A stretch of 64,000 bases of DNA from a bacterium GBS-1 (lineage in GTDB: Bacteria; Synergistota; GBS-1): assembly GCA_001443005.1 (NCBI GenBank), contig LEKQ01000001.1:142792-206791 (forward strand), written 5' to 3'. Positions 4,090 to 61,770 of this stretch are shown piece by piece; position 1 is the stretch's first letter, and every line of letters starts with the position of its first letter. The translations under genes and the position numbers were made by a program. Under the pieces are notes generated by a model, which had not been told where the DNA came from, ran no database searches, and was given only the letters and a program-made list of their open reading frames with translations.

Positions 4090-4096
4090 ATAAGCT

Positions 4097-12121: not shown

Positions 12122-12519
12122 AATTGAAAGCCATATTAGGCTTCGCCAGGAAGGCCAGAAAGTTAACCATTGGAAGGAAAGCAACCATAAAGGCTTTGAA
12201 GAAAGGGAAAGTCCGTTTGATCTTGCTTGCTCGTGACGCAGGGAAATCTATTTGTAGGGAACTCTTAAAATATTCCCAGGAAGCAAAGATCAACGCTATT
12301 TCTATATGCTCCAAGAGAGAATTAGGAAAAGCAATAGGTAGGGAAAATTGCAGCGTCCTCGGTTTAATGGACTGGAGGATGGCACAGGAGGTGATGCTTT
12401 TTGAGCAAAATAAGGGTCTACGAGCTAGCGAGAATAACCGGGCTTTCAACAAAGGACCTGATGGAAAAACTAAAGGAACTAGGAGTAGAGGTAAAGACAC
12501 ACATGAGCACAATAGATAA
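12118..12519 (+). CDS. ylxQ: L7Ae-family ribosomal-like protein (YlxQ) with C-terminal tail overlapping infB
   Basis: The KARKLTIGRKATIKALKKGKVRLILLARDAG L7Ae fold is present. The ORF has no stop until 12519 and overlaps the infB start by 119 nt. Confidence 0.65.
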   Translation: MKLKAILGFARKARKLTIGRKATIKALKKGKVRLILLARDAGKSICRELLKYSQEAKINAISICSKRELGKAIGRENCSVLGLMDWRMAQEVMLFEQNKGLRASENNRAFNKGPDGKTKGTRSRGKDTHEHNR

Positions 12520-29909: not shown

Positions 29910-29939
29910 GGGGGGGAATTAAATATGTTAGGAGGATAT

Positions 29940-37986: not shown

Positions 37987-40900
37987 ATGACCCTTAAAGG
38001 AGGCGGTGAGAAATTGCCTAAGAGAACTGACCTTCTAATATGTTTGGGAGCGGGTTGCGTTTCCTCGGGCAGTGAGCTTATAAAGAAAAAGCTTGAAGAA
38101 AAAATAAGAGAAAAAGGACTTGAGAATGAAGTAAGAATTATAGGTACAGGTTGCATGGGTCCTTGTGAAAGGGGACCCGTTATAATGATATACCCAGAGG
38201 GGGTATTTTACCAGAGGATAACCTTAGAAGATGTCGACACTATCGTTGAACAGCATCTGCTTAAAGGGAAGATCGTTGAAAAGCTTCTCCCCAAGGAAGA
38301 ATTAGCCCCAAGCATTAAAGAAAAAGAAATTCCATTCTTCACCAAACAGAAGAAGATAGTTTTATCTAACTGCGGTATTATAGATCCAGAGAAGATAGAA
38401 GAATACATAGCGGTAAACGGATACGAAGCTTTAGCCCGCGTTCTTGAAGGCATGACTCCAGAGCAAGTTATAGCAGAAATAGAAAAGTCTGGATTAAGAG
38501 GCAGAGGTGGCGCCGGATTTCCTACAGGAGCTAAATGGAAGTTTGTGAGAAACGCCCAAGGCAAGCCTAAATTCGTCGTATGTAACGCTGACGAAGGAGA
38601 CCCGGGTGCCTTTATGGACAGAGCGGTATTGGAAGGAGACCCTCACGCTGTCTTAGAGGGAATGCTTATCGCCGCTTATGCCGTAGGAGCGGAGCAAGGG
38701 TACATCTACGTGAGAGCTGAGTATCCCTTAGCCATAAAGAGGCTTCAAATAGCTATAGACCAAGCTCGTAAGTACGGATTCTTAGGGAAGAACATACTGG
38801 ATACGGACTTCTCCTTTGATATAGAGCTCAGAATCGGAGCTGGAGCTTTCGTCTGTGGAGAGGAAACAGCTTTACTTGCCTCCATAGAGGGTAAAAGAGG
38901 CATGCCAAGATCAAAGCCTCCATTTCCAGCAACTCATGGACTTTGGGGTAAACCTACCTTGATAAACAACGTAGAAACCTATGCCAACGTGAGGCATATT
39001 ATACTTAACGGTGCAGACTGGTTTAGAAGTTTTGGAACCCCATCATCTCCTGGAACAAAAGTATTCGCCCTATCTGGAAAGGTTAGGAACACAGGCTTAA
39101 TAGAAGTTCCCATGGGGACAACTCTTGGAGAGATTGTTTTCGACATAGGGGGCGGAATAATAGGAGATAGAAAGTTTAAGGCTGCACAAACGGGAGGTCC
39201 TTCAGGAGGTTGCTTGACTGTTAAGCACCTTAACCTACCGTTAGATTATGAATCTGTGAAAGAAGCAGGAGCAATAGTTGGCTCAGGCGGACTCATAGTC
39301 GTCGATGAAACTACATGCATGGTTGAACTTGCTCGTTACTTTCTAGAATTCTGTCAAGAAGAATCCTGTGGCAAATGTACACCATGCAGAGTAGGAACTA
39401 AAAAGATGCTCGAGATCCTTGAAAGAATAATTCATGGAAAAGGAACACTTGAAGACTTAGATAGGCTTGAGGAAATTGGAATGTGGGTTCAGCAAACCGC
39501 TCTCTGTGGATTAGGGCAAACGGCTCCCAACCCAGTCCTAAGCACTCTTAAATACTTCAGAGACGAATATGAAGCACATATTATAGATAAAAGATGTCCA
39601 GCTGGGGTCTGTGCCGACCTATTTATAGCTCCTTGCGAAAACGCTTGCCCAGCTCACGTGGACGTCCCAGCCTACATAGCTCACATCTCAGAAGGGAGAT
39701 TCAAGGAGGCCTTCTACGTACACATAAAGAATAATCCGTTCCCATCGGTATGCGGTAGAGCTTGTCCAGCACGCTGTGAAAGCTATTGTAGAAGACTTCA
39801 GGTAGATGAATCCATAGCGATAAGACAGCTCAAGAGATTTATGGCAGATAAGGCTATTGAGGAAAAGTGGGAGCTTCCTAAACCTGAAAGATATAACGGC
39901 AAGAAAGTGGCCATAGTTGGAGCTGGTCCTGCAGGATTAAGCGCAGCTTACTTCCTCAACCTTAAAGGATATAAGGTCACCGTCTTCGAAGCCCTTCCTG
40001 AACCTGGAGGAACCCCTACTCACTATATCCCTGAATATCGTCTACCAAAGGAAATAATCCTGGAAGAGGTAAGAAGAATAGAGAGATCTGGAGTCGAGAT
40101 AAGGGTCAATCACCCAATAACTGATTTAGAAGCCCTTAGAAAAGACTATGACGCAGTTTTCTTAGCGTGTGGAAGCATGAAAGAGACGAAGCTTAACGTT
40201 CCTGGAGAGAACCTGAAGGGAGTCCTAAGTGGCATGGAATTCCTAGGTAAAGTCAAGAAGGGAGAGAAGCCAGATATAGGCAAGAAAGTAGTAGTCATAG
40301 GAGGAGGAAACACAGCTATCGATGCTGCAAGAACGGCTTGGAGATTGGGAGCAGACGTTCATGTTATCTATAGAAGAACGAGAGATGAAATGCCAGCCCT
40401 TCATGAAGAAATAGAGGAAGCAGAAAGAGAGGGAATAAAGTTCACGTTCCTTGCAACACCAGTTAAGTTCCTAGAGGAAGATGGAAGGGTTAGAGCTGTT
40501 AGATGTATAAGCATGAAACTTGGAGAGTTTGACTCAACTGGTAGAAGAAAACCCATACCGATAGAAAACTCGGAATTCGATGTAGAAGCTACAAGCGTCA
40601 TAGTAGCAGTTGGACAAAGAGCTGACCTCGCGTTTAAGGTAGATGGTCTTGAACTAACCAGTTGGGGAACTATAAAGGTTGACCTAAGAACGCTTAAAAC
40701 CTCCTTGGAAGGGGTCTTCGCAGGCGGAGATGTTGTTCGTGGACCTTCAACAATCGTAGAAGCTGTAGCTGATGGAAGGTTAGCAGCTTCAATGATAGAC
40801 AAATACCTTGGTGGAGATGGTATACTATGGTACGAAAGTAGGGAATCAGTGAAAACCACATATAATGAGGAAGAATATCTCAAAACCCAGCCAAGGAGAA

Positions 40901-41040
40901 AGCCTGTTATCCTACCAGTAGATAGAAGAAGGAACTTCGCTGAGGTAGAAAAAACTTTCTTTGAAGGACAAGCTGTGGAAGAAGCAAGAAGATGTTTACA
41001 CTGTGACATAAAAGAGGAGGTCTTATTAGAAGAGGGGTGA
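37987..41040 (+). CDS. NuoF-like flavoprotein fused to GltD-like NAD(P)H:FAD oxidoreductase (1017 aa)
   Basis: N-terminal 2Fe-2S Trx-like domain (CLGAGC...CMGPCERGP). NuoF core (GLRGRGGAGFPTG; ESCGKCTPCR). GltD-type Fe-S region (CPAHVD...CGRACPARCE). Two dinucleotide folds (VAIVGAGPAG; VVVIGGGNTAIDAA). Confidence 0.85.
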   Translation: MTLKGGGEKLPKRTDLLICLGAGCVSSGSELIKKKLEEKIREKGLENEVRIIGTGCMGPCERGPVIMIYPEGVFYQRITLEDVDTIVEQHLLKGKIVEKLLPKEELAPSIKEKEIPFFTKQKKIVLSNCGIIDPEKIEEYIAVNGYEALARVLEGMTPEQVIAEIEKSGLRGRGGAGFPTGAKWKFVRNAQGKPKFVVCNADEGDPGAFMDRAVLEGDPHAVLEGMLIAAYAVGAEQGYIYVRAEYPLAIKRLQIAIDQARKYGFLGKNILDTDFSFDIELRIGAGAFVCGEETALLASIEGKRGMPRSKPPFPATHGLWGKPTLINNVETYANVRHIILNGADWFRSFGTPSSPGTKVFALSGKVRNTGLIEVPMGTTLGEIVFDIGGGIIGDRKFKAAQTGGPSGGCLTVKHLNLPLDYESVKEAGAIVGSGGLIVVDETTCMVELARYFLEFCQEESCGKCTPCRVGTKKMLEILERIIHGKGTLEDLDRLEEIGMWVQQTALCGLGQTAPNPVLSTLKYFRDEYEAHIIDKRCPAGVCADLFIAPCENACPAHVDVPAYIAHISEGRFKEAFYVHIKNNPFPSVCGRACPARCESYCRRLQVDESIAIRQLKRFMADKAIEEKWELPKPERYNGKKVAIVGAGPAGLSAAYFLNLKGYKVTVFEALPEPGGTPTHYIPEYRLPKEIILEEVRRIERSGVEIRVNHPITDLEALRKDYDAVFLACGSMKETKLNVPGENLKGVLSGMEFLGKVKKGEKPDIGKKVVVIGGGNTAIDAARTAWRLGADVHVIYRRTRDEMPALHEEIEEAEREGIKFTFLATPVKFLEEDGRVRAVRCISMKLGEFDSTGRRKPIPIENSEFDVEATSVIVAVGQRADLAFKVDGLELTSWGTIKVDLRTLKTSLEGVFAGGDVVRGPSTIVEAVADGRLAASMIDKYLGGDGILWYESRESVKTTYNEEEYLKTQPRRKPVILPVDRRRNFAEVEKTFFEGQAVEEARRCLHCDIKEEVLLEEG

Positions 41041-41047
41041 TTAAAGC

Positions 41048-41512
41048 ATGATTGGAGAGATCCTGAAGAGGTTCGAGCCGAGGAGAGAGAATCTATTGGA
41101 TATACTTCATGCCATGCAAGAAGCATCACCCACCAACAGCCTTTCAAAAGAAGACATAGAAGCTGTTGCTAAGTATGTCGGTATAACACCAGCAGAAGTC
41201 TGGGGAACCGCTACATTTTACTCCATGTTCTCTGTCAAACCTAGAGGAAAGTACGTAATAAGGGTCTGTACCTCACCAGCTTGTCATCTATTAGGAGGAG
41301 AAAGCGTCTTAGAAGCACTTAAAAGGGAACTGGGAATCGATGTAGGAGAAACGACGAAGGACGGAGTTTTCACACTGGAAACCTCGAGCTGCTTAGGAAT
41401 TTGCGGTGTAGCTCCGGCTATGATGATAGATGAAATAGCATATGGGAACCTCACCCCTGAGAAAATTAAAGAGATAATTCTTAGCTATAGAAAGAGGGGA
41501 GAAGAATCATGA
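41048..41512 (+). CDS. NuoE/HydC-like [2Fe-2S] subunit (copy 2)
   Basis: CTSPACH...CLGICGVAPA four-Cys motif. Confidence 0.85.
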   Translation: MIGEILKRFEPRRENLLDILHAMQEASPTNSLSKEDIEAVAKYVGITPAEVWGTATFYSMFSVKPRGKYVIRVCTSPACHLLGGESVLEALKRELGIDVGETTKDGVFTLETSSCLGICGVAPAMMIDEIAYGNLTPEKIKEIILSYRKRGEES

Positions 41513-43074
41513 TAAGAATAGAAAGGGCGCATATTCTCGTCGGCATAGATCAGGGCTCGATCTTAGCTGGAGCAAGGGACGTCCAAAAAAAGCTCGAGGA
41601 AGAGATTAAAAAGCGCGGTCTTGAAACCGAAATAAGAGTCCTTGAAACGGGAAGCCTTGGAATAACAGGAAGGGGAGTCGTTCTTCTAGTTTACCCCGAA
41701 GGCGTATATTACGTTAACGTAAAAGTTGAGGATGTTCCAGAAATAGTGGAAGAACACCTGCTTAAGGGCAGATTCGTTAAACGTCTCATGCTCGAACCTC
41801 AACTGGCAGAAATCCTCGCTAAAGGAGAGTTTCCTAAAAAACTCTCAAAGCAAAAAAGGGTGGTTCTTCAAAATGCAGGTGTTATAAATCCAGACAGCAT
41901 AGAAGAATACATTGCTGTTGGAGGATACGAAGCTTTAGCTAAGGCTCTTGAGTCATCTCCAGAGTGGGTTATAAACGAAATAGATAACTCAGGCTTAAGA
42001 GGCAGAGGTGGTGCTGGATTCCCAACAGGGAAGAAATGGAAGTTCACTGCTGAAGTTAAAGCTCCTCAGAAGTTCATAATATGTAATGCAGATGAAGGAG
42101 AACCAGGTACTTTCAAAGATAGGCTTATACTTGAAGGTGATCCTCACAAGGTCCTTGAAGGCATGGCCATCGCAGGCTACGCAGTAGGTGCAAACAAGGG
42201 CTATCTCTATATAAGAGGTGAATATGACCTGTCTATTCGTAGGATAAGCAAAGCTATAGAAGATGCTTATAAGATGGGATTACTTGGTGATAACGTATTG
42301 GATAGCGGCTTTTCCTTCCATGTGGAAATTAAGAAGGGAGCAGGTGCCTATGTATGCGGAGAGGAAACGGCCTTAATAGAGTCTATAGAGGGGAAGAGGG
42401 GAAATCCTCGTCCCAAACCACCTTACTACCCTGGTATAAAGGGACTTTGGGGGTATCCTACAGTGGTAAATAACGTTGAAACCTTAGCTAATGTCCCTCC
42501 AATAATACTGAACGGAGCAAGTTGGTTTAAGAGTATGGGAACGAAGGAATCCCCAGGCACCAAGGTTTACACCATCTTAGGACATGTTAAAGAACCAGGG
42601 TTAATAGAAGTAGAAATGGGAACAACGCTTAGAGAAGTTATCTTTGAGTTTGGTAAGGGAATGAGAAATAATAGAGAATTCAAAGCTGCACTAATAGGGG
42701 GAGCGGCGGGAGCTTTCTTAGGGAAAGAAGCCCTTGATATCCCTCTATCCTATGAAGGTCTTAGGGAGTATGGGGGAGTCTTAGGATCAGGAGCTATCCT
42801 TGTGCTTGATGACTCGACATCAATCACCGATATGCTACAAAACGTGATATCCTTCTTCAAACATGAAAGTTGCGGGAAGTGTGTCCCGTGCCGAGTAGGA
42901 ATTACTAAGCTACTTGAAAGGATGGAGAAAGGTACCCTACTTGAAAAAGATCTCAAGGAAATGATAGAGATATCAGAAAAGATGGCCGATACAGCACTTT
43001 GTGCTTTAGGCCAATCGTTAATTCTTCCCGTATCAAGTGCAGTCCGTTTCTTCAAAGAAGAACTTACAGCATAG
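41509..43074 (+). CDS. NuoF/HydB-like NADH-binding flavoprotein subunit (copy 2)
   Basis: GLRGRGGAGFPTGKKW and ESCGKCVPCR. The N-terminal Trx-like domain lacks Cys and there is no C-terminal ferredoxin domain. Confidence 0.85.
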   Translation: MIRIERAHILVGIDQGSILAGARDVQKKLEEEIKKRGLETEIRVLETGSLGITGRGVVLLVYPEGVYYVNVKVEDVPEIVEEHLLKGRFVKRLMLEPQLAEILAKGEFPKKLSKQKRVVLQNAGVINPDSIEEYIAVGGYEALAKALESSPEWVINEIDNSGLRGRGGAGFPTGKKWKFTAEVKAPQKFIICNADEGEPGTFKDRLILEGDPHKVLEGMAIAGYAVGANKGYLYIRGEYDLSIRRISKAIEDAYKMGLLGDNVLDSGFSFHVEIKKGAGAYVCGEETALIESIEGKRGNPRPKPPYYPGIKGLWGYPTVVNNVETLANVPPIILNGASWFKSMGTKESPGTKVYTILGHVKEPGLIEVEMGTTLREVIFEFGKGMRNNREFKAALIGGAAGAFLGKEALDIPLSYEGLREYGGVLGSGAILVLDDSTSITDMLQNVISFFKHESCGKCVPCRVGITKLLERMEKGTLLEKDLKEMIEISEKMADTALCALGQSLILPVSSAVRFFKEELTA

Positions 43075-43089
43075 GAGGTGTTTAATACT

Positions 43090-44928
43090 GTGAGAGAGGT
43101 AAAACTCAAGATAGACGGAAAGGAAGTTATAGCAACAGAAGGCATGACAATACTTGAAGCAGCAAGAAAGGCTGGTTTTGAAATTCCTACTCTTTGCTAT
43201 CACGATGGATTATCTGCACATGGTGGATGCAGACTCTGTGTAGTCGAAGTTAAAGGTTCTCCAAGGCTTCTAACAAGCTGTACCACCCCTGTAACCAACG
43301 GAATGGAGGTATCTATAAACACAGACCGTGTTAAAGAGGCTCGTAAATTCGTAATGAACCTTATAATGACCGAAAGAAACCACTTCTGCATGTTCTGCGA
43401 AAAAAGCGGAAGATACGAAGAAACCGATTGTGAACTTCAAAAGAGAGCTTACGAAGTCCAGATAGAACACTTCCCGTTCCCAGTATATGTTAATAAATAT
43501 CCAATAGACACAACGTCACCAGTTATGGTAATGGACCACAACCGTTGCATACTCTGTGGCAGATGTGTTAGAGTCTGTTCGGAAGTCGTAGCTAACTCAA
43601 CCTTAGACTTCAGCTTCAGAGGTTCAAAAGCCTTGATAGCTTCAGATACAGGCTTGAACAGGGGGGAATCAAGCTGCATATCCTGTGGAGCTTGCATGCA
43701 AGTATGTCCTGCGGGAGCGTTGTTCAGCAAGTTTGGAGGATATAAAGGAAAGAAGAGCTTGTGCGAAAAGATAGAAACATTCTGCCCCATATGTGGTGTC
43801 GGTTGTGAAACAACCAACTATGTGCGTTATAACAACATAGTTGAGATAGAGGGAAGCGGTCTGGCTAAGGGAAACTTAGATGGAGGGCAGCTCTGCGAAA
43901 AAGGAAGATACGGTCCCTTGATGGAAACGAGGAACAGGATATCTCTTCCGCTCCTTAGGGATTCCAGAGGAAGATTTGTAGAAAGTAGCTACCAGGAAGC
44001 AATAAACAAAAGTATACAGCTGCTTAAAGCCTATTCCCCAGACAAGATAGTCTTCAGAGTCTCTTCCTTCCTACCAGCGGAAGACCTAGCCTACATAAAA
44101 GGGTTCGCTCTCAAGCTTGGAGTAAAAGATATAGACACCTTCGATGGAGAAATATATAGGAATTTGATATCTTTCGATTACCCTAAAGCGAACTACGAAG
44201 ACATCCTTAACTCAGACCTAATCATACTTGTGGGTGGCGACATTGTGAAAGAACATGGAGTGGTTGGATCTTACATAAGGAGAGCCGTTAGGAATAAAGG
44301 CGCTGAATTAATCATAATCTCTCCAGCAGAAAGCAAGATGGATAGATTCTCCAAGGAGGTAAGGAGAGTTGCGGAAGGCAGTGAAGGTTCAGTCGTCAAA
44401 GAATATGAGGAGAAAATAAGGAAAGCTTCTAACCCAGTGATAATTCTTGAGGGCGCTTATCTTCTTAAAAACAGGGAAGCAATAGAATCATGGCTTAAAT
44501 TCGCTGAAGCGTCAAAGGTTAAAACTCTACCTCTACCCCCCACAGGTAACAGCTTAGCAGCTTGGAAGCTAGGTATATCGTCTAAATCCAACGAGAATAC
44601 AGAATCCGGAAAACTTCTTTTCCTCATCCTCGGAGATATAGATTCTAGCTACTCACCCGCATCCTTAGCTGAGCTAGGCTTCGAAGCAATAATACTCCAT
44701 GGAGCTTATATAGACCCGATGATGAAGCTAGCTGATGTCGTTTTGCCTGGAAAAAGTTGGCTTGAAAATGAAGGAACATATAAGCTAATAAGCGGAGAAG
44801 TTAAGAAGTTTACGCCTATACTCCGGGCAGAAAAGGATGCGAAGAGCCCAAGGGAGCTACTTTCTGAGCTTGCAGACGCCTTAAGATTAGGTAAAATTGA
44901 TATAGATAGTTTAATTACAAGTTTGTAA
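43090..44928 (+). CDS. NuoG/HydA-like Fe-S subunit (2Fe-2S + 4Fe-4S N-terminus, truncated molybdopterin-like C-domain)
   Basis: CYHDGLSAHGGCRLCVV; CILCGRCVRVC; CISCGACMQVCP. No H-cluster motifs. GTG at 43090 has AGGAGGTG upstream; the track start at 43078 overlaps the SD. Confidence 0.8.
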   Translation: MREVKLKIDGKEVIATEGMTILEAARKAGFEIPTLCYHDGLSAHGGCRLCVVEVKGSPRLLTSCTTPVTNGMEVSINTDRVKEARKFVMNLIMTERNHFCMFCEKSGRYEETDCELQKRAYEVQIEHFPFPVYVNKYPIDTTSPVMVMDHNRCILCGRCVRVCSEVVANSTLDFSFRGSKALIASDTGLNRGESSCISCGACMQVCPAGALFSKFGGYKGKKSLCEKIETFCPICGVGCETTNYVRYNNIVEIEGSGLAKGNLDGGQLCEKGRYGPLMETRNRISLPLLRDSRGRFVESSYQEAINKSIQLLKAYSPDKIVFRVSSFLPAEDLAYIKGFALKLGVKDIDTFDGEIYRNLISFDYPKANYEDILNSDLIILVGGDIVKEHGVVGSYIRRAVRNKGAELIIISPAESKMDRFSKEVRRVAEGSEGSVVKEYEEKIRKASNPVIILEGAYLLKNREAIESWLKFAEASKVKTLPLPPTGNSLAAWKLGISSKSNENTESGKLLFLILGDIDSSYSPASLAELGFEAIILHGAYIDPMMKLADVVLPGKSWLENEGTYKLISGEVKKFTPILRAEKDAKSPRELLSELADALRLGKIDIDSLITSL

Positions 44929-44949
44929 TCATTTAAGGAGGAGATTAAG

Positions 44950-45489
44950 TTGGCTAAGGTAAGGGTTGCCACTACATGGCTCGAGTGTTGTTCAGGATGT
45001 CACATGTCCATTCTAGACTTGGATGAAAAATTAGTTGACTTACTATCCAAGATAGAGTTCGATGCAAGTCCAATAACAGATATAAAAGAGTTTGGCGAAG
45101 TAGATGTGGGAATAGTAGAGGGTTCTGTCGGAAATGAAGAACAACTTGAGGTGCTGAAGAAGATACGCGAAAAGGCCAAAATCCTTATAGCCCTTGGTGA
45201 TTGTGCTTGTTTCGGAGGCATACCTGCCATGAGGAATTTCTTCAACAAAGATGAGGTGCTAAAGAGGGTCTACATCGAAACTGAAAGCACTGTTAACCCA
45301 AGCAAGGTTATACCAAGCTTAGATGTTCCTAAGATATTTCCAAGCGTTAAATCTATAGATCAATTTGTTAAGGTTGACGTTTATATACCCGGATGCCCAC
45401 CAGACCCAAGAGCTATAGAATACGCTATAAAGGAGCTCCTTGAAGGCAAGATACCCGTATTACCGCCAGAGCTCTTATCGTATGAATGA
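44950..45489 (+). CDS. [NiFe]-hydrogenase small subunit (group 3, HoxY/HydS-like)
   Basis: WLECCSGCHMS proximal cluster motif and GDCACFGG. 179 aa. Confidence 0.9.
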   Translation: MAKVRVATTWLECCSGCHMSILDLDEKLVDLLSKIEFDASPITDIKEFGEVDVGIVEGSVGNEEQLEVLKKIREKAKILIALGDCACFGGIPAMRNFFNKDEVLKRVYIETESTVNPSKVIPSLDVPKIFPSVKSIDQFVKVDVYIPGCPPDPRAIEYAIKELLEGKIPVLPPELLSYE

Positions 45490-45504
45490 GGAGGTGCTTG
45501 TTCT

Positions 45505-46932
45505 GTGGAACAAAGGATAGAAGTTTTTCCCGTAACCAGAGTCGAGGGACATGGAAAGATAACAATTCATTTAAATGAATCAGGAAAAGTAGAAAAGACC
45601 TTCTTCCATGTAACCCAAATAAGAGGGTTCGAGAAGTTCTGCGAGGGAAGGGTCTTCTGGGAAATGCCTGTAATGACACAAAGAGCTTGTGGAATCTGTC
45701 CTGTAAGTCACCATCTTGCCTCAGCTAAGGCTACAGATAAGATCCTAGGAGTAGAGATACCACCGACAGCTAAAAAGCTCAGAGAGCTTATGCATATGGG
45801 GCAGTTAGTTCAATCTCATTCATTACACTTCTTCCATTTAGCAAGCCCAGATCTCTTACTGGGAATGGATGCTGATCCTAAAATAAGAAATATCGTAGGA
45901 GTGATAGAAAAACACCCCGATCTTGCTGTAAGAGGAGTTAAACTAAGAAAGTATGGACAAGAAGTAATAAAGACCCTTAGTGGGAAAAGGATTCATCCGC
46001 GCTTCGCTATACCAGGTGGGGTTAACAAAGGACTTTCCATAGAAGAAAGAGATATGCTTTTGAGAGACATAGATTGGGTAATAGATAGCCTTAGAGACAC
46101 GGTTAAGCTTATCAAAAATCTCGCTGAGAATTGGGGAGAAAGGTTCAGAAGGTTTGCTTCCTTCCCTTCTTTCTATATGGGGCTCGTTGATGAAAATGGG
46201 AATCTAGACCTATATCATGGCAAGATAAGGCTTTGTGACCATCGTGGAAGAATTATAGATGAGTTCAGCGAGGATAACTACCTTGAAAAGATAGGTGAAT
46301 GGGTTGAGCCTTGGTCTTACATGAAGTTTCCATTCTATAAAGAGCTTGGCTACCCAGAGGGAAGCTACAGAGTAGGTCCATTGGCAAGACTAAATTGCTG
46401 TGATGATATTTCCACTCCCTTAGCTAAAGAGGAACTAACAGCCTTTCGCCAAATGATAGGAGACAAGGTAGCAGAAGGGTCGCTATTCTACCACTATGCA
46501 AGAATGATAGAAGCTTTACATGCTGCTGAACGTTTAAAGGAACTCCTAGAAGACCCAGATATAACTGGGACAGAACTTCGAGCAGTAAGTAGAGAGTTCA
46601 AACCCGAGGGTATAGGAGTTTTAGAGGCACCCAGAGGAACCCTAATTCATCATTATAAGGTGAACGAAAACGGCGAAATAGTAAAGGCCAACCTAATAGT
46701 AGCGACGGTTCATAACAACCACGCCATGAACAAGGCCGTTGAACTTATAGCAAAAGAGTACATTAAGGGACCGGAGATAAAGGAAGGATTCCTAAACATG
46801 CTTGAGGTAGCGATAAGATGCTATGACCCATGCCTTTCATGCGCCACTCATGCTCTTGGAAAGATGCCTCTTCAGGTTATCATCTACGATGCTGAAGGTA
46901 ATAAGGTTAACGAGCTGGTGAGAAATCACTGA
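45505..46932 (+). CDS. [NiFe]-hydrogenase large subunit (group 3, HoxH/HydL-like)
   Basis: N-terminal RACGICPVSHH and C-terminal DPCLSCATH Ni-binding motifs. Confidence 0.95.
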   Translation: MEQRIEVFPVTRVEGHGKITIHLNESGKVEKTFFHVTQIRGFEKFCEGRVFWEMPVMTQRACGICPVSHHLASAKATDKILGVEIPPTAKKLRELMHMGQLVQSHSLHFFHLASPDLLLGMDADPKIRNIVGVIEKHPDLAVRGVKLRKYGQEVIKTLSGKRIHPRFAIPGGVNKGLSIEERDMLLRDIDWVIDSLRDTVKLIKNLAENWGERFRRFASFPSFYMGLVDENGNLDLYHGKIRLCDHRGRIIDEFSEDNYLEKIGEWVEPWSYMKFPFYKELGYPEGSYRVGPLARLNCCDDISTPLAKEELTAFRQMIGDKVAEGSLFYHYARMIEALHAAERLKELLEDPDITGTELRAVSREFKPEGIGVLEAPRGTLIHHYKVNENGEIVKANLIVATVHNNHAMNKAVELIAKEYIKGPEIKEGFLNMLEVAIRCYDPCLSCATHALGKMPLQVIIYDAEGNKVNELVRNH

Positions 46933-52032: not shown

Positions 52033-52677
52033 ATGACTAAGAATAGATTTATAACACTTGATATTTGTCTATTAATATTCTTACTATTAGCCTTAGCTGA
52101 AAGATCGGAAGCGCAAAGCATTTATTATAAGGAGATACTCACAGACGAAGATGTAAGCCTAAGCCCACGCACTTGGGTTATCCTTAATGAAATAACTACA
52201 TGGGACCAAATAGTAACCTACACTGGAGATCCTAACCTCCATAACCTTGAAAATATTATAAGGTCAAGCCCAAAAGTCCAACCAGATTCTGATGTATATT
52301 TATACGGACTAGGAATGTACTTTTGGAGCGCGGTAATTGAGAACGATCTGTTCATCACCATCAGCTCTCTATATTATGATAGCCAAGAAGACCTAGTCAT
52401 AGCTTTTAACCCTTGGATAAGAACTTGGCACATTATAGATGAATTCTCCTCAGGAGCTTACATAGAAAACGCTTACCCACTAACGTTATGCATCGAAGAT
52501 GACTCTATATATGATGCAACTCCTGGAACTCCCCAACCAGAGATAACTTTCATAGTCGTAATAGCTAAGGTCTATAACTATGGTGGAGGAGGTGGATGTA
52601 CTACAGGAGAGAAAGAAAGCCTAAATCTTTTGTTATTACTACTTCCTCTCGGACTAATGATATTTAAAAAACGTTAA
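52033..52677 (+). CDS. secreted protein with Gly/Cys-rich C-terminal sorting-signal-like tail
   Basis: Signal peptide (LLIFLLLALAERSEA). C-terminus YGGGGGCTTGEKESLNLLLLLLPLGLMIFKKR, that is a Gly run with Cys, a TM helix and a basic tail. Confidence 0.6.
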   Translation: MTKNRFITLDICLLIFLLLALAERSEAQSIYYKEILTDEDVSLSPRTWVILNEITTWDQIVTYTGDPNLHNLENIIRSSPKVQPDSDVYLYGLGMYFWSAVIENDLFITISSLYYDSQEDLVIAFNPWIRTWHIIDEFSSGAYIENAYPLTLCIEDDSIYDATPGTPQPEITFIVVIAKVYNYGGGGGCTTGEKESLNLLLLLLPLGLMIFKKR

Positions 52678-54774: not shown

Positions 54775-54805
54775 TTATCAAAAATTTTCTTGCTTTTTTT
54801 GATAA
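54775..54805 (+). promoter_or_regulatory. 10-bp perfect inverted repeat (TTATCAAAAA-N11-TTTTTGATAA) overlapping a putative -35 TTGATA
   Basis: The two arms are exact reverse complements. The IR lies 45 nt upstream of the first gene of the EPS locus, with a TATATC/TTATAT -10-like element downstream. Confidence 0.45.
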
Positions 54806-54848
54806 TTAGTGATAACATATTTATATCTTCAGGAAAGGGGATAAAAAC

Positions 54849-55964
54849 ATGAAAAGAGTTTTGGGGAAAAAGGGGATGTTTTTAACACTACTTGCTATTG
54901 TTTTACTCTCACTGGCATGTGGAAGCGGAAACTCCTATAATGGAGGGATTGGGGATGCTGCTGAACCCACGTTCTACCAGTTAAAGGAAGACATAGCACG
55001 CGGCTTAGAAACCCTAAGATCACCGCAAGGGTTGTTATATACCTCTACGACAGAAAAGAGTTTCTTATCTGAGACCATAGGTCTTGAGATGCTTTGGCGT
55101 GTGATGATAGAAGACAAGGCAAATTTCGACAAGCAATACGCTCTTTTGAAGAAATATTTTATCTCCCCAGGGGGATTACTTTACTGGAAGCTAAGCGCAA
55201 ATCTGAAACCCTCTAACGCAAATGCATCCGTAGACGATTTAAGGGTCTGTAAAGCTCTCCTATTGGCTTACAAGAAGTGGGGAGACTCAAACTATCTTAG
55301 CGCCGCAAAGCAGATAGCAGATGGACTACTTAAATATTGTGTTAAAGACTACATACTATTAGACGGAGCTTCTTGGCAGAGCGGGGGAATATACGGAGGC
55401 GTGAAAATAACCGGAGTAATTAACCAGATAACGCTTTCTTATCCAGACATTGAAACGATGATACTTTTAAGAGACATTAACGGCGAATGGCTCAAGGTTG
55501 CTCAAAAAACAGCTGGTGTGGTCCTATTGGGAGCAACCCTTAAGGAACACGATGTATACTGGGGATATGATTTAGTAAAAGAAAGCTACTTTGATCTAGG
55601 TGAAGAAAACTTAATAAACGTATTTCTTCATCTTTTTCATCTAGCAAGTATTGGAAGCATACCTGTAAAAAATGTCAGCTATTTCGCATCCAATTTAAAA
55701 AGCGAGGGAGGAATATACATAAATGGAGTTGATGAAAACGTAGCCGTTTACGCTGTTGCAAGCATGGTTTTTCATTATAGCGGATTCCCGGAAGAGAGAG
55801 ACACCTGCCTTAAAAAGCTATTTGATTTTCGCTTAGATAACGGTCTTTTAGGCTACTTGCTCGATGGGGGCAAAGTAAATGCGTGGGCATTTGACAACTT
55901 ACTTGCTCTAATTTCGCTCGAAATAGCGATGAAAAGTAAGGAGGCTCAAACAAGTAACCCATGA
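54849..55964 (+). CDS. putative lipoprotein glycoside hydrolase (GH8-like alpha/alpha-toroid)
   Basis: Signal peptide with Cys (LLSLAC). TSTTEKSFLSETIGLEMLW and ASVDDLRVCKALLLAY resemble the GH8 SEGQSY / D-x-x-IAxALL motifs. The assignment is tentative. Confidence 0.45.
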   Translation: MKRVLGKKGMFLTLLAIVLLSLACGSGNSYNGGIGDAAEPTFYQLKEDIARGLETLRSPQGLLYTSTTEKSFLSETIGLEMLWRVMIEDKANFDKQYALLKKYFISPGGLLYWKLSANLKPSNANASVDDLRVCKALLLAYKKWGDSNYLSAAKQIADGLLKYCVKDYILLDGASWQSGGIYGGVKITGVINQITLSYPDIETMILLRDINGEWLKVAQKTAGVVLLGATLKEHDVYWGYDLVKESYFDLGEENLINVFLHLFHLASIGSIPVKNVSYFASNLKSEGGIYINGVDENVAVYAVASMVFHYSGFPEERDTCLKKLFDFRLDNGLLGYLLDGGKVNAWAFDNLLALISLEIAMKSKEAQTSNP

Positions 55965-56857
55965 GAAAAGAAAGCAATTCAAGCCCTAATGACCCAACCC
56001 CCTTAGAGAAAAGCCTTAAGGAAAGGTTCTATATTCTTACAAGCATCGTGCTTATACTATTTACTATTTTACAAACATGGCTATTTATGAATGGCGCCTA
56101 TAACATAGAGCAATTCATATTACTTACATTAAGCATCTTCTTACTATATGTGGGATTAATTGGTGGATTGAAAATCACCATGATTGCGAACCTTATTTTC
56201 GTGCTTGGATATGGACTTTTGAACACCTTCCTATACTTTAAATTTTATTTAGAAGCGAAAATAGGAATCAACCAGTTTATATGGCTAATAATCACTCCAC
56301 TAATAGCATACATAGGAGGGCTAATACACGAAGAGTGGAAAAAGCTTTTAACACAGCTTGTAGCTTTGGTAAGCGAGGGTGAGAGCTTTAACACATTAGA
56401 TAGGACAGTTGGGCTAACCAAGGCAGAAAGCTTCGCTCTCAGAGTTAATCAGGAAATCTCAAGGGTTAAAAGGCACGGTGGAACTTTTAGTATCCTGCTA
56501 ATTAAAGTTGAACACCTCAAGGAACTTTCGGACATATACGGAGAAAGGATAAGAGATACGGTTTTGGGAAAGGTGACCGAAGCTCTTAAGAAACTCAAGA
56601 GAGAAGAAGACTCCCTTTATTACATATCAGAAGGGGAATTTGCCCTTCTCTTACCAGATACCAACAAAGAAGGGGCTAATCTGATGTTAAAAAGAATTAA
56701 GCAGGATCTGAACTATGTTGATATCTCGGGTGAAAAGGATTTTATGAGAATAAAGATCAATATCCGGATAGGAGCATCAACATACCCAGACGATGGAGAA
56801 GATTACATACCCTTGATATGGGCAGCTAGAAAGGAGTATGAGTATGACATTAAATAA
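55961..56857 (+). CDS. membrane protein with degenerate GGDEF domain (SEGEF) and intact RxxD I-site
   Basis: Four or five N-terminal TM helices. The GGDEF fold is recognisable: REED-SLYYI-SEGEF in place of RxxD-x5-GGDEF. Confidence 0.65.
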   Translation: MRKESNSSPNDPTPLEKSLKERFYILTSIVLILFTILQTWLFMNGAYNIEQFILLTLSIFLLYVGLIGGLKITMIANLIFVLGYGLLNTFLYFKFYLEAKIGINQFIWLIITPLIAYIGGLIHEEWKKLLTQLVALVSEGESFNTLDRTVGLTKAESFALRVNQEISRVKRHGGTFSILLIKVEHLKELSDIYGERIRDTVLGKVTEALKKLKREEDSLYYISEGEFALLLPDTNKEGANLMLKRIKQDLNYVDISGEKDFMRIKINIRIGASTYPDDGEDYIPLIWAARKEYEYDIK

Positions 56858-58454
56858 CCGAAGGACAAGGATTATACATTTTATAGCTTCTTACCTGTTC
56901 TTCTCCTTATTTATAATAGCGCTATCTAATCCCGCCACAGCACTCGGCAAAAGATCAGCCTTAGTTCTATACGATGAAGTAACGCAAGACTATGGAACTA
57001 GTTTAGTAAATATCTTAGGACACTTCTACAATGAGTATGATGTAAATCTGATTAACATCTCTAAAGCCGATCTTGAAGAAGTTAAAGAAGTAGATGCTCT
57101 ATTTTTACTTGCCACTTACTTTTCTTTTAACTACGATATCAACCTGATTAAAGTGATAGGGGAGAGGGAGATTCAAGGAAATAAAATAACATGTCTTATA
57201 GGAACTCCACCCTGGCTTAAAAGAAGTAAAACCATGAAAAGCTTCACATATGTAAGCTACAAAGGTAATGACTACAGAGAGGGAACTTATGACCTGTTTC
57301 CTGTAGATATAGATTTTGACATCACATTAGCAAAATTACATATGGGAGACAAAACCGACGAAACCCCTTTAATAGCAAGGAGAGGAAACCTTTGGATCAT
57401 CCAAGGGTTTCCCATATTTGGCATACACTCCTGGATTTTAGGCGATGCACTACACGACATCCTTGAGGTGAAACACAAAGATGACAAAAACGTATCTCTT
57501 AGGCTCGAAGATGTTAACCCTTCTTACTCTGATCGAGATATTAAGAACTTAGAAGAATGCATAGAATATCTTCATAGCGAAAACATTCCCTTTTTCGTAG
57601 TAGTCTATCCCGTATTCATAGACCGTAAGAGTAATAAGATCATAACTCTAGCGCAAAATCCAAAGCTTATATCCGTACTTAAGAAGGCTGAAAAAATGGG
57701 AGGTAACATAGTGATGCATGGAGTAACTCACCAGCATCAATACATGGAGGTCTCTGGAGAGGGATCTGAGTTCTGGGACATGATTGAAGACAAACCGCTA
57801 TATAATGAAGTGGAATTCTTTAATGAAAGGATATCCTATGGGCTTAAAATCTTCAAGGAGGCCGGATTAAATCCATTGTTTTTCGAAGCACCTCACTATA
57901 ACCTTTCATTAAACTTACAGTTCGAACTTTCTAAATACTTTAGCACGCTACTCGGATCAGTTTTGATAAGCGATAGAACCTATAGAATCTCCCAAAGCTT
58001 TCCATTCTTAATATACAAAAGCTACTCCGGATTGATGGTTATTCCTGAACAGCTGGGCTATATCTCAGTGGACGATATCTCTGGATCGATAAGCTCGATA
58101 AAGGAAAAAGCCCTAAAACTTAAGAACATCGTCAGAGACCCTATGGCCTGTTTCTTCTATCACCCCTTCGTCAATGGCGTAGTTCCCTTAAAGGAGCTAA
58201 TTTCCTTCTTCATAAATGAAGGGTTCAGTTTTGTTAATATCTCTTCATACGTTCAACCTCCAAAAGCTCTCACGATAGATACTTCTTCTTCGAAACCCAT
58301 AGAGGATATAACAAAAATTGGAAGAAAACCGATCTATATAGGAAAGACCTTCGCAACGTTTTCCATAGCTTCCTCTATACTCTTTTTTCTAATTTACCTT
58401 AAGATTCTAAAGAAGAGAAAGAGGAGGCTTTTTGAAATTGATAAACCTTCTTGA
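56838..58454 (+). CDS. polysaccharide deacetylase-like protein (CE4/DUF2334-like) with N-terminal domain and C-terminal TM anchor
   Basis: Signal/TM N-terminus. LRLEDVNP and VMHGVTHQH resemble CE4 metal-binding motifs. A C-terminal hydrophobic helix is followed by KKRKRR. Confidence 0.55.
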   Translation: MSMTLNNRRTRIIHFIASYLFFSLFIIALSNPATALGKRSALVLYDEVTQDYGTSLVNILGHFYNEYDVNLINISKADLEEVKEVDALFLLATYFSFNYDINLIKVIGEREIQGNKITCLIGTPPWLKRSKTMKSFTYVSYKGNDYREGTYDLFPVDIDFDITLAKLHMGDKTDETPLIARRGNLWIIQGFPIFGIHSWILGDALHDILEVKHKDDKNVSLRLEDVNPSYSDRDIKNLEECIEYLHSENIPFFVVVYPVFIDRKSNKIITLAQNPKLISVLKKAEKMGGNIVMHGVTHQHQYMEVSGEGSEFWDMIEDKPLYNEVEFFNERISYGLKIFKEAGLNPLFFEAPHYNLSLNLQFELSKYFSTLLGSVLISDRTYRISQSFPFLIYKSYSGLMVIPEQLGYISVDDISGSISSIKEKALKLKNIVRDPMACFFYHPFVNGVVPLKELISFFINEGFSFVNISSYVQPPKALTIDTSSSKPIEDITKIGRKPIYIGKTFATFSIASSILFFLIYLKILKKRKRRLFEIDKPS

Positions 58455-59709
58455 TTATGCCTTCATCTTCTCTGTAATGGTGATATGGACCCTACTGTTG
58501 TACCATGTCATACTGTCCTTCTTAGGCTTTAGATATTCTCTAATCTCAGAAAGAGAAAAGGAGAGGTTCGATTTAACACCCCTTAACGAAAGCAGTCTTC
58601 CAAAGGTAACGATACTTATACCTGCTCATAATGAGTCAGCTGTTATAGAAAGAACCTTAATAGCTATGGGAAACCTTAACTATCCTAAGGAGAAGCTCGA
58701 GATTCTTTGCCTTAATGATAACTCCACCGATAACACTGAATCGATCGCAAGAAGGACAGCTGAAAAAATAGGAAAGCATATAAAGGTGGTCAATGTCCCT
58801 CGTGAAAGGGGCAAGCGGGGAAAGTCGTCAGTCCTAAACTATGGCTTAGAGATAGCTACAGGAGAGGTAATAGCTGTATATGACGCTGATAATACTCCCG
58901 AAAGCAATTCCTTACTCTACCTAGTCCGAAACCTTTTAGAGGGTAGAGGGAAAATTGGAGCAGTTATAGGTAAGTTTAGAACCAGGAATAGGGAAAGAAA
59001 CCTTTTAACCCACTTCATAAACTTAGAAACCATATTTTATCAGTGGACAACGCAGGCCGGCAGATGGCATCTATACAAGCTAGCTACACTTCCAGGAACA
59101 AACTTCGTAATATGGAAGAGCCTTTTAAATGAACTAAACGGATGGGATACAAAGGCCTTAACAGAGGATACCGAGCTTTCTTTGAGAATCTACCTTAAAA
59201 ACCTGCTTATAAAGATGGTTCCATATGCAATAACCTGGGAAGAAGAACCCGAAAGGTTAAGCGTTTGGTTCAAACAAAGAACAAGATGGGCTCAAGGTAA
59301 TCTCTATGTTCTTAGGAAATACTTTTTCCCTCTTCTTTTTTCCGGAAACTTTATGCTTTTCTTCGATTTACTTTACCTCATAATAGTGTACTTCCTTTTT
59401 CTTTCGAGCATCGTAATTTCCTTGTTTATATTCCTAACAGGAATAATGGGGTTATGGAGAGTAAATGTAGAAGGACCATTTAATCTGCTATGGTTCATGG
59501 CCATTATCCTTTTCATACTTGAACTGGGAATAACGCTTACGTCTGAACCAGGGGAAAACAGGCTAGGAAATCTTTTGCTTGGGCTATTGATGTACTTCAC
59601 ATATACTCAGCTTTGGATTTTAGTTGTGATAAACGCCCTATGGCAATCTATAAAATCGATTTTAAAGAGAGAAGGACTCTCTTGGTATAAAACAGAAAGG
59701 GCAGGGTGA
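58432..59709 (+). CDS. family-2 processive glycosyltransferase (PgaC/IcaA/BcsA-core-like synthase, no PilZ)
   Basis: N-terminal TM, GT-A fold with ILIPAHNES, DAD (DxD) and QRTRWAQG (QxxRW), then four C-terminal TM helices. 425 aa. Confidence 0.85.
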   Translation: MKLINLLDYAFIFSVMVIWTLLLYHVILSFLGFRYSLISEREKERFDLTPLNESSLPKVTILIPAHNESAVIERTLIAMGNLNYPKEKLEILCLNDNSTDNTESIARRTAEKIGKHIKVVNVPRERGKRGKSSVLNYGLEIATGEVIAVYDADNTPESNSLLYLVRNLLEGRGKIGAVIGKFRTRNRERNLLTHFINLETIFYQWTTQAGRWHLYKLATLPGTNFVIWKSLLNELNGWDTKALTEDTELSLRIYLKNLLIKMVPYAITWEEEPERLSVWFKQRTRWAQGNLYVLRKYFFPLLFSGNFMLFFDLLYLIIVYFLFLSSIVISLFIFLTGIMGLWRVNVEGPFNLLWFMAIILFILELGITLTSEPGENRLGNLLLGLLMYFTYTQLWILVVINALWQSIKSILKREGLSWYKTERAG

Positions 59710-59715
59710 GAGAAA

Positions 59716-61770
59716 TTGACAAAATTATGCTTAATACTGATGTTTCTTATAGTAGCGCTACAGGAACCAACCCTAGCTAACCAGAATGCTTATCCAAACG
59801 AGGAAAAACCGGAAAGCTTAAACATATTTCTAACTATAGAGGATATAAGCATATCCTCTATATTTGGTTATAAGGATTTCTATTTCACAATACCACCATC
59901 ATGGAAGCTTCTACCAGGATCATTTCTAGACCTAGTTATAAGTCATTCCAAGGCGATTAAACCTGATTTATCGGGTTTAACAATCTACCTAAATGGAATG
60001 CCAATCTATTCAATCCCACTAGATGATAGTAACTCATTGAAAACATCGATCAAAATTCCAATTCCAGAAGGAAACCTGAAGAGGGGCATTAACATTTTAG
60101 AAGTTAAAGGCTTCTTGAAAACTACCGGTAGGGGACTCACTGACGTGGGCAATCCTATCAATTGGGTAAAAGTTCATAAGGAGAGTTATGTCCGCTTAAA
60201 ATACTTCCTAAGAAAGGATCTGAGTATAAAAGATTTTCCTTCTCCATACTTTGAGGAAAACGTTCCACAGGATGAAATGACCGCCTTTATTCTTCCACAA
60301 AATTGGTCTGATACCGAGCTTAAGGCTGTCCTAGTAATAGTCCTCGATTGGGTTCGAAGATCACCGTTAAAGTGGTTCGCCCCTAAAATATTCACATTTG
60401 ATGAGCTTAACGAAGAGATAAAAGAAACCTACAATTTAATCTATATAGGAAAAGCCACTTCCTTTACACCTGAGGTCTTAAAGGAGTTCAACGTAGATAT
60501 TCCAAGCTTAGGAGAGGGTACCATCATTTCAAGCCTTATAAGTAAAAATAAAAAAGCAAAACTTCTCGTTTCATCTAAAGGAGACGATGGGATAAGCAGA
60601 GGAGCTTTATCTCTTCTATCCCCAGAAATTACAAAACAAATCGAAGGCGATAAAGCTTACATTCCACCCTACGTAAAGATTCCTTCACTAAGCCAAAAAG
60701 CTTTAACCACAGGAAATATCGTATATTTTAATGACCTAATAAAAAGGGATATAGTATTTAAGGGGGCCTATTCTCACTCAGATGCGATTGCACTTAGAAT
60801 ACCTCAAAACTGGTTGATAAAGGGAACACCATATTTAGCGATTCAATTTAGGCATTCCCCAAATCTAAATAGTAAACGTTCAGCCTTAACCATATTGATA
60901 AATGGCATTCCAATTAAGTCGGTAGAGCTTTCTCCCCAAAATGCAGCAGGGGATAAAGTTACCATACCTATACCCTATGATTCTATAAAGCAGGGCTTAA
61001 TATACGTTACTTTCGAAGCTTATTTAGACATAGATATTTTAGACACTGATTACAACTATCCAGAAATAGCTTGGCTTGTAATAGAAAAATACTCTTATTT
61101 CAGCATACCTCATGAGATAGGACTTATGGCAACGACCTTAGAAAACCTTCCTTATACGATCCCAAATGCTATAGGGGTTCTCCTGGGAAGGGAAAAGAGC
61201 AGCAAAGCTCTAAACACCTTACTTTACTGCCTAATGGGCCTACAAAAGCTAAATCCACAAACCCTGCAAATCTCAATATTAAACCTAGATAAAGAGAAAC
61301 TTCTAGAGAACAGCTTCAAAACCCTGATAGTACTAGCACCTATAGAGGAACTCGAAAAAGCTGGCATAAAAATTCCTTTGAATGAAATACCAGCTCTTCC
61401 AAGCTTCATTGAAAACGCAACATTGTGGCAAACTCAAAACCTTAAAGGAAAAGAAAACCCTTTAGTATTAGTAATATCTTGGATAAAGAATCATCCCAAA
61501 CTATATCCTGAGTATGAAAAGACTCTTTTAGAATGGAAGCTCAAAGGGAATATAGCGATGGTTTCCGGTAATGGAGAGGTAATTCCATTTTACATCTCTG
61601 AAGCTCCTACCAAATTACTAGAAGTAAAAATTAAAGAGCAAAGCTTCTTTGAAAAGATATGGGCAAATCTCTCACAAAACCGAAATTTCTTAGGCCTATT
61701 TTTGCTAACGTTTATCACTATCTCGATAGTTATATTAATAATCTTCATAAAAATTAGGAAACAAGAGTAA
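59716..61770 (+). CDS. BcsB-like periplasmic co-polymerase subunit with C-terminal TM anchor
   Basis: Signal peptide. Two repeats of the BcsB-like pattern (LTIYLNGMPIYSIPL...GINILEV...NWVKV; LTILINGIPIKSVEL...IAWLVIEKY). Single C-terminal TM. Confidence 0.6.
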   Translation: MTKLCLILMFLIVALQEPTLANQNAYPNEEKPESLNIFLTIEDISISSIFGYKDFYFTIPPSWKLLPGSFLDLVISHSKAIKPDLSGLTIYLNGMPIYSIPLDDSNSLKTSIKIPIPEGNLKRGINILEVKGFLKTTGRGLTDVGNPINWVKVHKESYVRLKYFLRKDLSIKDFPSPYFEENVPQDEMTAFILPQNWSDTELKAVLVIVLDWVRRSPLKWFAPKIFTFDELNEEIKETYNLIYIGKATSFTPEVLKEFNVDIPSLGEGTIISSLISKNKKAKLLVSSKGDDGISRGALSLLSPEITKQIEGDKAYIPPYVKIPSLSQKALTTGNIVYFNDLIKRDIVFKGAYSHSDAIALRIPQNWLIKGTPYLAIQFRHSPNLNSKRSALTILINGIPIKSVELSPQNAAGDKVTIPIPYDSIKQGLIYVTFEAYLDIDILDTDYNYPEIAWLVIEKYSYFSIPHEIGLMATTLENLPYTIPNAIGVLLGREKSSKALNTLLYCLMGLQKLNPQTLQISILNLDKEKLLENSFKTLIVLAPIEELEKAGIKIPLNEIPALPSFIENATLWQTQNLKGKENPLVLVISWIKNHPKLYPEYEKTLLEWKLKGNIAMVSGNGEVIPFYISEAPTKLLEVKIKEQSFFEKIWANLSQNRNFLGLFLLTFITISIVILIIFIKIRKQE

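Follow-up and report, generated by a model that had tools for sequence, protein, structure and literature searches.

A probable YdaJKLMN/Pss-type exopolysaccharide operon in the genome of an uncultured bacterium

The bacterium GBS-1 (contig LEKQ01000001.1) carries, within the stretch of DNA that we analyzed here (64,000 nt, hereafter the window, numbered from its first letter), a set of five co-directional genes whose products recall cellulose, poly-N-acetylglucosamine (PNAG) and Pel exopolysaccharide systems all at once, which raises the question of whether the locus represents a new kind of polysaccharide machine or a known one in an unfamiliar host. The original prediction, which was made from the sequence alone, described an exopolysaccharide locus of the synthase-dependent kind, in which a degenerate-GGDEF protein would serve in trans as the receptor for cyclic di-GMP (c-di-GMP) and which includes a deacetylase-fold protein, and we judged this functional logic to be correct. 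Its further statement, that the combination was not recognizable as a described system, did not hold, as both ydaJKLMN of Bacillus subtilis and the pss genes of Listeria have been published and the cassette is widespread; the locus is therefore not a new kind of system. We conclude that the five genes very probably form an intact operon on the chromosome that belongs to the YdaJKLMN (B. subtilis)/PssABCDE plus PssZ (Listeria) type and would be switched on post-translationally by c-di-GMP.

The open reading frame (ORF) list of the window contained all five ORFs on the plus strand where they had been predicted, and together with Pfam it reproduced the domains claimed for each. Gene 1 (54849-55964, 371 aa) is of the YdaJ/PssZ type and encodes a predicted lipoprotein of glycoside hydrolase family GH126; gene 2 (55961-56857, 298 aa) is of the YdaK/PssE type, with transmembrane (TM) segments and a degenerate GGDEF domain; gene 3 (56838-58454, 538 aa) is of the YdaL/PssB type, with a ThuA/GATase1-like and a DUF2334 domain; gene 4 (58432-59709, 425 aa) is of the YdaM/PssC type and encodes a synthase of glycosyltransferase family 2 (GT2) without PilZ; and gene 5 (59716-61770, 684 aa) is of the YdaN/PssD type, BcsB-like with a C-terminal TM segment. 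Overlaps of 4-23 nt had been claimed for the whole set, and among the longest ORFs they were found at the first three junctions (4, 20 and 23 nt at 1/2, 2/3 and 3/4), whereas a 6-nt gap, and no overlap, lies between genes 4 and 5.

These five gene types are those of the B. subtilis locus, where ydaJKLMN encodes, in this order, a putative hydrolase, YdaK as the c-di-GMP receptor, with four TM helices and a degenerate GGDEF domain, then YdaL, and lastly YdaM and YdaN as components of the synthase, and where the function of the genes has been tested genetically (PMC5422440; PMC13274460; PMC9800504). Polymer production in B. subtilis requires YdaLMN as well as YdaK with both its TM helices and its RxxD motif, and YdaJ is dispensable (PMC5422440; PMC13274460; PMC9800504; PMC7064775). 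When we checked the window for the components of the Yda/Pss type, a PilZ-less GT2, an adjoining BcsB-like protein, a receptor combining RxxD with a degenerate GGDEF, a protein at the YdaL position and a GH126 hydrolase were all present.

We weighed against this the reading under which the locus would be an undescribed hybrid that mixes cellulose-, PNAG- and Pel-type parts. The parts do resemble those of three classical systems (a BcsB domain at 2.8e-31, PgaC_IcaA as the best NCBIfam match of the synthase, and a degenerate GGDEF), none of the five operon proteins receives a name from an NCBIfam equivalog, and the public copies of these proteins are nameless. Against it, however, stand the published ydaJKLMN operon with the same gene order and the Listeria pss genes with the same kinds of component (PMC5422440; PMC13274460; PMC4125290), as well as the presence of the cassette in many genera, with the synthase found in at least 541 species genomes, and we consider the hybrid to be the least probable of the readings weighed here.

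The synthase encoded by gene 4 matched GT2 families only in Pfam (Glyco_tranf_2_3, 3.5e-28), and the same search revealed no PilZ domain. We located its motifs at DAD151, TED244 and QRTRW282, together with four to five TM segments, which bears out the predicted 425-aa GT2 with D, DxD and QxxRW motifs and no PilZ. The protein was 47% identical (5e-123) to a UniRef entry named 'Uncharacterized glycosyltransferase YdaM', and family members are named thus or 'ydaM' in their source databases. In a Protein Data Bank (PDB) sequence search with the synthase, the closest solved structures were BcsA chains (6e-17), and no structure of a Yda/Pss complex was found. Its best NCBIfam match was PgaC_IcaA (TIGR03937), with 151 bits and 4.6e-44 over nearly the full length, against a cut-off of 422 bits; CelA (TIGR03030) scored 98 bits (cut-off 699) and NF008558 scored 75 bits (cut-off 992).

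Taken by itself, the PgaC_IcaA match could point to a PNAG system of the Pga/Ica type making partially deacetylated beta-1,6-N-acetylglucosamine (GlcNAc), for which the deacetylase-fold protein of gene 3 would also speak. The score nevertheless lies far under the cut-off of that model, the operon contains neither a small PgaD/IcaD partner nor a PgaA porin, and its deacetylase is a DUF2334 protein and not a Polysacc_deac_1 protein like PgaB/IcaB; moreover, as in Yda/Pss, the synthase has a BcsB-like protein and a GGDEF receptor for partners. In Listeria, PssC is a GT2 that is ~30% identical to IcaA and ~25% identical to BcsA, and PssD is a BcsB orthologue (PMC4125290). The same ambiguity was pointed out by those who studied the Listeria genes, and the Listeria polymer proved not to be PNAG (PMC4125290; PMC6307706). 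It consists of beta-1,4-linked N-acetylmannosamine (ManNAc) that carries galactose (Gal) in alpha-1,6 linkage (PMC6307706; PMC5422440). A PNAG system thus seems very unlikely to us.

Gene 5 was detected by the Pfam BcsB profile at 2.8e-31 over residues 42-466, so the BcsB similarity on which the prediction of a cellulose-like partner depended was upheld. Its two halves aligned with each other at 28% identity over 124 aa (E = 4e-12), in keeping with the two BcsB-like repeats that had been read in this 684-aa protein and with a duplicated carbohydrate-binding module, and we placed TM segments at residues 4-22 (signal peptide) and ~660-678 (C-terminal anchor). Against the NCBIfam equivalogs for BcsB, the best score was 42 bits, with cut-offs of 750-1667. 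Neither the BcsB-like protein nor the DUF2334 protein had a meaningful match in the PDB sequence search.

Gene 1 had been described as a GH8-like lipoprotein, and we did obtain a partial Glyco_hydro_8 match (5.5e-9) and, at the N-terminus, a hydrophobic stretch followed by LSLAC at residues 20-24, which fits a lipoprotein signal. The best PDB matches were to 3REN (CPF_2247 of Clostridium perfringens), at 1e-16 over the full length, and to 6R2M (Listeria PssZ), at 4.4e-9. CPF_2247 and PssZ are the two characterized members of CAZy family GH126, which is related to GH8 and GH48 and is set apart from them by an Arg and a Tyr (PMC7479077); the signature comprises Glu84, Asp136 and Tyr194 along with the family-specific Arg139 and Tyr307, in CPF_2247 numbering, on an (alpha/alpha)6 barrel (PMC7479077). 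In the alignment with 3REN, gene 1 keeps all five of these residues, as E75, D129, R132, Y198 and Y301, and from these residues and matches it appears better placed in GH126, the PssZ family, than as 'GH8-like', which refines that part of the prediction. PssZ hydrolyses the Listeria polymer and is its cognate hydrolase (PMC4125290; PMC6307706; PMC7479077).

The Glyco_hydro_8 match, the BcsB-like partner and the BcsA chains among the structure matches could together be taken to indicate a Gram-positive-style cellulose operon, with BcsA-like, BcsB and BcsZ-like products making beta-1,4-glucan. However, the synthase lacks PilZ and scores higher with PgaC_IcaA than with CelA, the BcsB equivalog scores fall far below their cut-offs, and the hydrolase has the Arg and Tyr specific to GH126 and matches PssZ. 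An unsubstituted glucan would also leave little purpose for a conserved protein whose model has a CE4 fold and whose metal site appears intact, and the characterized relative in Listeria yields a ManNAc-Gal polymer (PMC6307706; PMC5422440). We therefore regard cellulose as very improbable, if marginally less so than PNAG. Both assignments were rejected on the equivalog scores and on the content of partner genes.

A membrane-anchored protein with a degenerate GGDEF had been predicted for gene 2, and this was supported throughout: Pfam matched GGDEF at 3.3e-21, hydropathy indicated three to four N-terminal TM segments, and the motif string REED (214-217)-SLYYI-SEGEF placed an intact RxxD five residues before a degenerate signature. 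Alignment with a solved diguanylate cyclase (3IGN) confirmed this register, with REED aligned to the I-site RQSD and SEGEF to GGEEF. Listeria PssE has the same layout, with a degenerate GGDEF (DKDDA) and an I-site RxxD five residues upstream (PMC4125290). Across the loci that we fetched, the Arg and Asp of RxxD were invariant and GG(D/E)EF was degenerate in every synthase-linked GGDEF gene (71/71), and the sole intact GGEEF in the set belonged to an unrelated gene on the opposite strand. Judged by its motifs, gene 2 displays the pattern expected of a dedicated I-site receptor for c-di-GMP.

The product of gene 3 is predicted to be extracytoplasmic, its N-terminal domain being ThuA/GATase1-like and its C-terminal one of the DUF2334 family (Pfam, 5.3e-45), and no protein of the operon matched Polysacc_deac_1. 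The prediction of a CE4/DUF2334-like protein stood, but in place of the single TM anchor that it included we found hydrophobic helices at both ends. To compare the domain with CE4 enzymes we used the distorted (beta/alpha) barrel, the Asp-His-His metal triad, the catalytic base and acid, and the motif order MT1, MT2, MT3, MT5. The DUF2334 domain adopted a CE4 fold in the predicted structure model, and the CE4-like Asp/His/His set, with D225, H294 and H298 as the putative metal ligands, was kept, and was invariant along with the candidate catalytic residues in 21/21 homologues. The lack of such a set together with a lack of BcsB similarity in gene 5 would, in the original prediction, have reduced the locus to a generic GT2 with hypothetical proteins. 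In Listeria, PssB is listed as the exopolysaccharide deacetylase, and its loss leads to an absence of cell-wall-associated exopolysaccharide (PMC6307706, Table 1). We propose that gene 3 encodes a candidate de-N-acetylase of the polymer.

A scan with the synthase, using one genome per species, detected close relatives in the at least 541 species genomes mentioned above. We probed the best 80 loci with the five window proteins, setting aside contigs fetched earlier, including copies of the window's own region. The J-K-L-M-N order that a genomic-context survey had been suggested to look for was found in 11/80 loci, among them loci of Tepidanaerobacteraceae, Peptoclostridium, Tepidibacter, Cohnella and Atribacterota, and in 14 when loci with a duplicated L (DUF2334) gene are counted; these three more loci came from two Thermovirgaceae metagenome-assembled genomes (MAGs) and one Cohnella. 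A K-L-M-N arrangement was seen in 14/80 loci, mostly from Clostridium, and a Listeria-like M-N-K order occurred in Paenibacillus and Acetobacterium loci and not in the window. Nearly all of the 80 related loci had a BcsB-like gene directly 3′ of the synthase, and a DUF2334 or divergent DUF2334 gene occupied the position upstream of the synthase in yda-type and pss-type loci alike. In the pss-type loci, the gene at the PssA position, which precedes the sub-threshold DUF2334 gene, had no Pfam match. The intact-order cassette extends into uncultured thermophile-like lineages (Synergistota, Atribacterota), and variant layouts occur in MAGs of Dictyoglomota, Bacteroidota and Sumerlaeota.

Several of these loci depart from the common layout in ways of their own. 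Two Clostridium botulinum loci carry the GGDEF, DUF2334, GT2 and BcsB cassette without an upstream GH126 gene and have a GH113-family gene downstream (~12068-13162), which suggests that hydrolases are swapped within the system. In four loci from Eubacteriales, Sumerlaeota and Bacteroidota MAGs, the synthase has directly upstream of it giant ORFs of ~1,300-1,700 codons with DUF2334 homology inside them, and no BcsB-like gene was detected downstream; the cassette may exist here in a variant form that is fused or lacks BcsB. Two tandem DUF2334 genes were present in two Synergistales metagenome contigs and in the two Thermovirgaceae MAGs, and in the Synergistales contigs the BcsB-like gene is longer (835 aa), with a faint AMIN-domain match at its N-terminus. 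Such an arrangement may have a bearing on the way in which the machine would fit into a diderm envelope.

From these components the following mechanism can be proposed for the YdaJKLMN/Pss-type operon. The GT2 of gene 4 would polymerize a UDP-sugar, most likely an N-acetyl-hexosamine, and thread the chain through its own membrane channel, and the BcsB-like protein of gene 5, with its C-terminal helix beside the synthase, would receive and guide the chain outside the cytoplasmic membrane. Since the synthase is without PilZ, activation would come in trans from gene 2, whose membrane-anchored degenerate GGDEF would bind c-di-GMP at the RxxD I-site and thereby activate the synthase. The DUF2334 protein of gene 3 would remove some of the N-acetyl groups by means of its CE4-like metal site, and the GH126 lipoprotein of gene 1 would cleave, trim or release the polymer. 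Three points suggest that the polymer is probably based on N-acetyl-hexosamine, namely the lean of the synthase towards PgaC/IcaA, the conservation of the deacetylase site and the polymer made by Listeria. The dependence on c-di-GMP through RxxD and the requirement for the individual components are carried over by analogy from genetics in B. subtilis and Listeria; that deacetylation takes place, and that this organism uses c-di-GMP, we infer.

Some observations weigh against assigning the locus to the Yda/Pss type, or against parts of the mechanism. The apparent membership is read from gene order, domain content, names transferred between databases and published descriptions. The polymer is defined for Listeria only, and lectin data from B. 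subtilis suggest alpha-Gal or N-acetylgalactosamine (GalNAc). No diguanylate cyclase was found in the 64-kb window. For the deacetylase, the candidate catalytic base in gene 3 is Glu224, where CE4 enzymes have Asp, and our literature search found no paper reporting deacetylase activity of any DUF2334 protein or a link between DUF2334 and exopolysaccharides. B. subtilis YdaL and Listeria PssB are presumably DUF2334 proteins, given their operon positions, and the genes at the PssB position in Paenibacillus and Acetobacterium gave only sub-threshold DUF2334 matches. Finally, the window lineage appears to be related to Synergistota, yet the locus holds no outer-membrane export component.

This last point bears on what the locus may mean. 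Members of the phylum Synergistota possess an outer membrane. Work on the Yda/Pss machine has been confined to Firmicutes with a single membrane, and if the host of the window is truly diderm, its polymer would be periplasmic or associated with the outer membrane, or would exit by an unrecognized route. We consider it rather doubtful that the locus represents a new envelope context for the Yda/Pss machine in a diderm host, or, separately, that its YdaL-type protein, with ThuA-like and CE4-fold domains, Glu in place of Asp and two anchors, defines an uncharacterized family of deacetylases. The locus has value for annotation, as public databases give its five proteins no names and NCBIfam has no equivalog for them. 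In addition, the receptor pattern seen in 71/71 genes provides comparative support for a mechanism that was proposed from genetics in two model organisms; the invariant CE4-like site and the modelled CE4 fold of the DUF2334 protein likewise support it and point to YdaL/PssB as a candidate deacetylase family.

In public gene calls for the same sequence, genes 3, 4 and 5 begin slightly later, which yields products of 536, 423 and 676 aa. The starts at 56844 (gene 3) and 58438 (gene 4) are likely the true ones because their spacing to AGGAG-like ribosome-binding sites favours them. For gene 5 we prefer the TTG start at 59716 because it provides a complete and better signal peptide, and the JGI call agrees with it. 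Identical proteins are present in NCBI, JGI and ENA with no names attached, a 73%-identical synthase carries a Synergistota label, and the next named relatives are from Thermovirgaceae.

The operon is flanked by pheA (chorismate mutase/prephenate dehydratase), on the minus strand, and by a convergent gene with an Mpt_N domain. In the closest species-representative genome among the matches listed (L008), which has a 71% identical synthase, the operon lies between the same two neighbours, and we therefore take it to be a stably inherited chromosomal locus.

Upstream of gene 1, in an intergenic region of 184 nt, there is a perfect 10-bp inverted repeat, with arms at 54775-54784 (TTATCAAAAA) and 54796-54805 (TTTTTGATAA) that are 11 nt apart, which was considered as a possible operator. 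When the intergenic region was shuffled, a repeat this long arose in 2.5-5% of cases (p ~0.025-0.05); 9/347 window tiles of the same size also contained one, and in L008 the repeat is absent upstream of the orthologous operon. The repeat thus exists as originally described, but it appears only marginally above chance and would be weak evidence for anything; as a conserved operator it was rejected, given that it is not kept in L008 and is only marginally non-random. A putative promoter can be read from the sequence at 54790-54818 (+), comprising TTGCTT (54790-54795), a 17-nt spacer and an extended -10 of the form TGa-TAACAT (hexamer 54813-54818), and the right arm of the repeat falls within its spacer, so the predicted overlap with a promoter holds for this weak candidate. 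In a consensus promoter/terminator scan the candidate was below threshold, the region upstream of gene 1 had no match, and matches were no commoner than in shuffles. The L008 operon has a comparable TTGACT ... TGaTAAGAT layout upstream. Across the window, no Rfam family (a c-di-GMP riboswitch or other RNA element) and no tRNA was detected.

The rest of the 64-kb window encodes housekeeping functions (nusA, infB, truB, ribF, hisS, aspS, glmS) and anaerobic redox proteins, including an aldehyde:ferredoxin oxidoreductase (29925-31754) and NuoF-like proteins with a NiFe hydrogenase. The latter lie at 37987-46932 (+), where a 1017-aa fusion of NuoF-like and pyridine-nucleotide oxidoreductase parts, a second NuoF-like protein, a subunit of the NuoG/molybdopterin type and a NiFe hydrogenase large subunit form a cluster that resembles an anaerobe's redox module of the electron-bifurcating type. 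At 3220-5920 (+), some ~50 kb upstream of the operon, a sugar-nucleotidyltransferase gene adjoins that of GlmS (glutamine:fructose-6-P amidotransferase); the pair could conceivably provide precursors of hexosamines, but both genes have housekeeping roles and neither is linked to the locus. We found no sugar epimerase (including UDP-GlcNAc 2-epimerase), outer-membrane exporter or mobile-element gene in the 64-kb window. At 52033-52677 (+) there is a gene for a 214-aa predicted secreted protein without a Pfam match, which is conserved beside the same neighbours in L008 and whose C-terminus (GGGGGC...LLLLLLPLGLMIFKKR) resembles a Gly-rich, hydrophobic and basic sorting tag.

Among known systems, Pel has PelD as its degenerate-GGDEF receptor and further comprises the GT4 protein PelF, PelG, PelE, PelB, PelC and a hydrolase/deacetylase fused in PelA, and Pfam detected none of these further families in the window locus. 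With Bcs cellulose systems the operon shares a processive GT2 (D, DxD, TED, QxxRW) and, paired with it, a partner of the BcsB fold anchored by a C-terminal TM segment, a clan-related (alpha/alpha)6 hydrolase and, as proposed here, activation by c-di-GMP. It differs in that its synthase is without PilZ, so that c-di-GMP would be sensed in trans, in having no BcsC, in having GH126 in place of GH8 and in its extra CE4-fold protein, and all Bcs equivalog models remain far below their cut-offs for the window proteins. In Listeria monocytogenes the pss genes run A-B-C-D-E, the receptor gene closing the series, and the hydrolase is encoded apart from them in a c-di-GMP operon; pss-type loci carry the extra gene at the PssA position, unlike the window. 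The kinds of component are nevertheless the same, namely a GT2 without PilZ, a BcsB-like protein, a degenerate-GGDEF I-site receptor, a deacetylase and a GH126 protein (PMC4125290; PMC6307706; PMC7479077), and gene 1, which matches the PssZ structure 6R2M, keeps the catalytic Glu. Compared with the yda operon of B. subtilis, the window differs in its host, which is an uncultured, low-GC, apparently Synergistota-related anaerobe and not a member of Bacillaceae, and in its upstream region, which has a sigma-70-like extended -10 candidate where yda is SigB-dependent (PMC13274460). In agreement with YdaK, where the degenerate signature is SDERI, the window receptor has RxxD five residues before its SEGEF (PMC5422440), and the five gene types stand in the exact order of yda.

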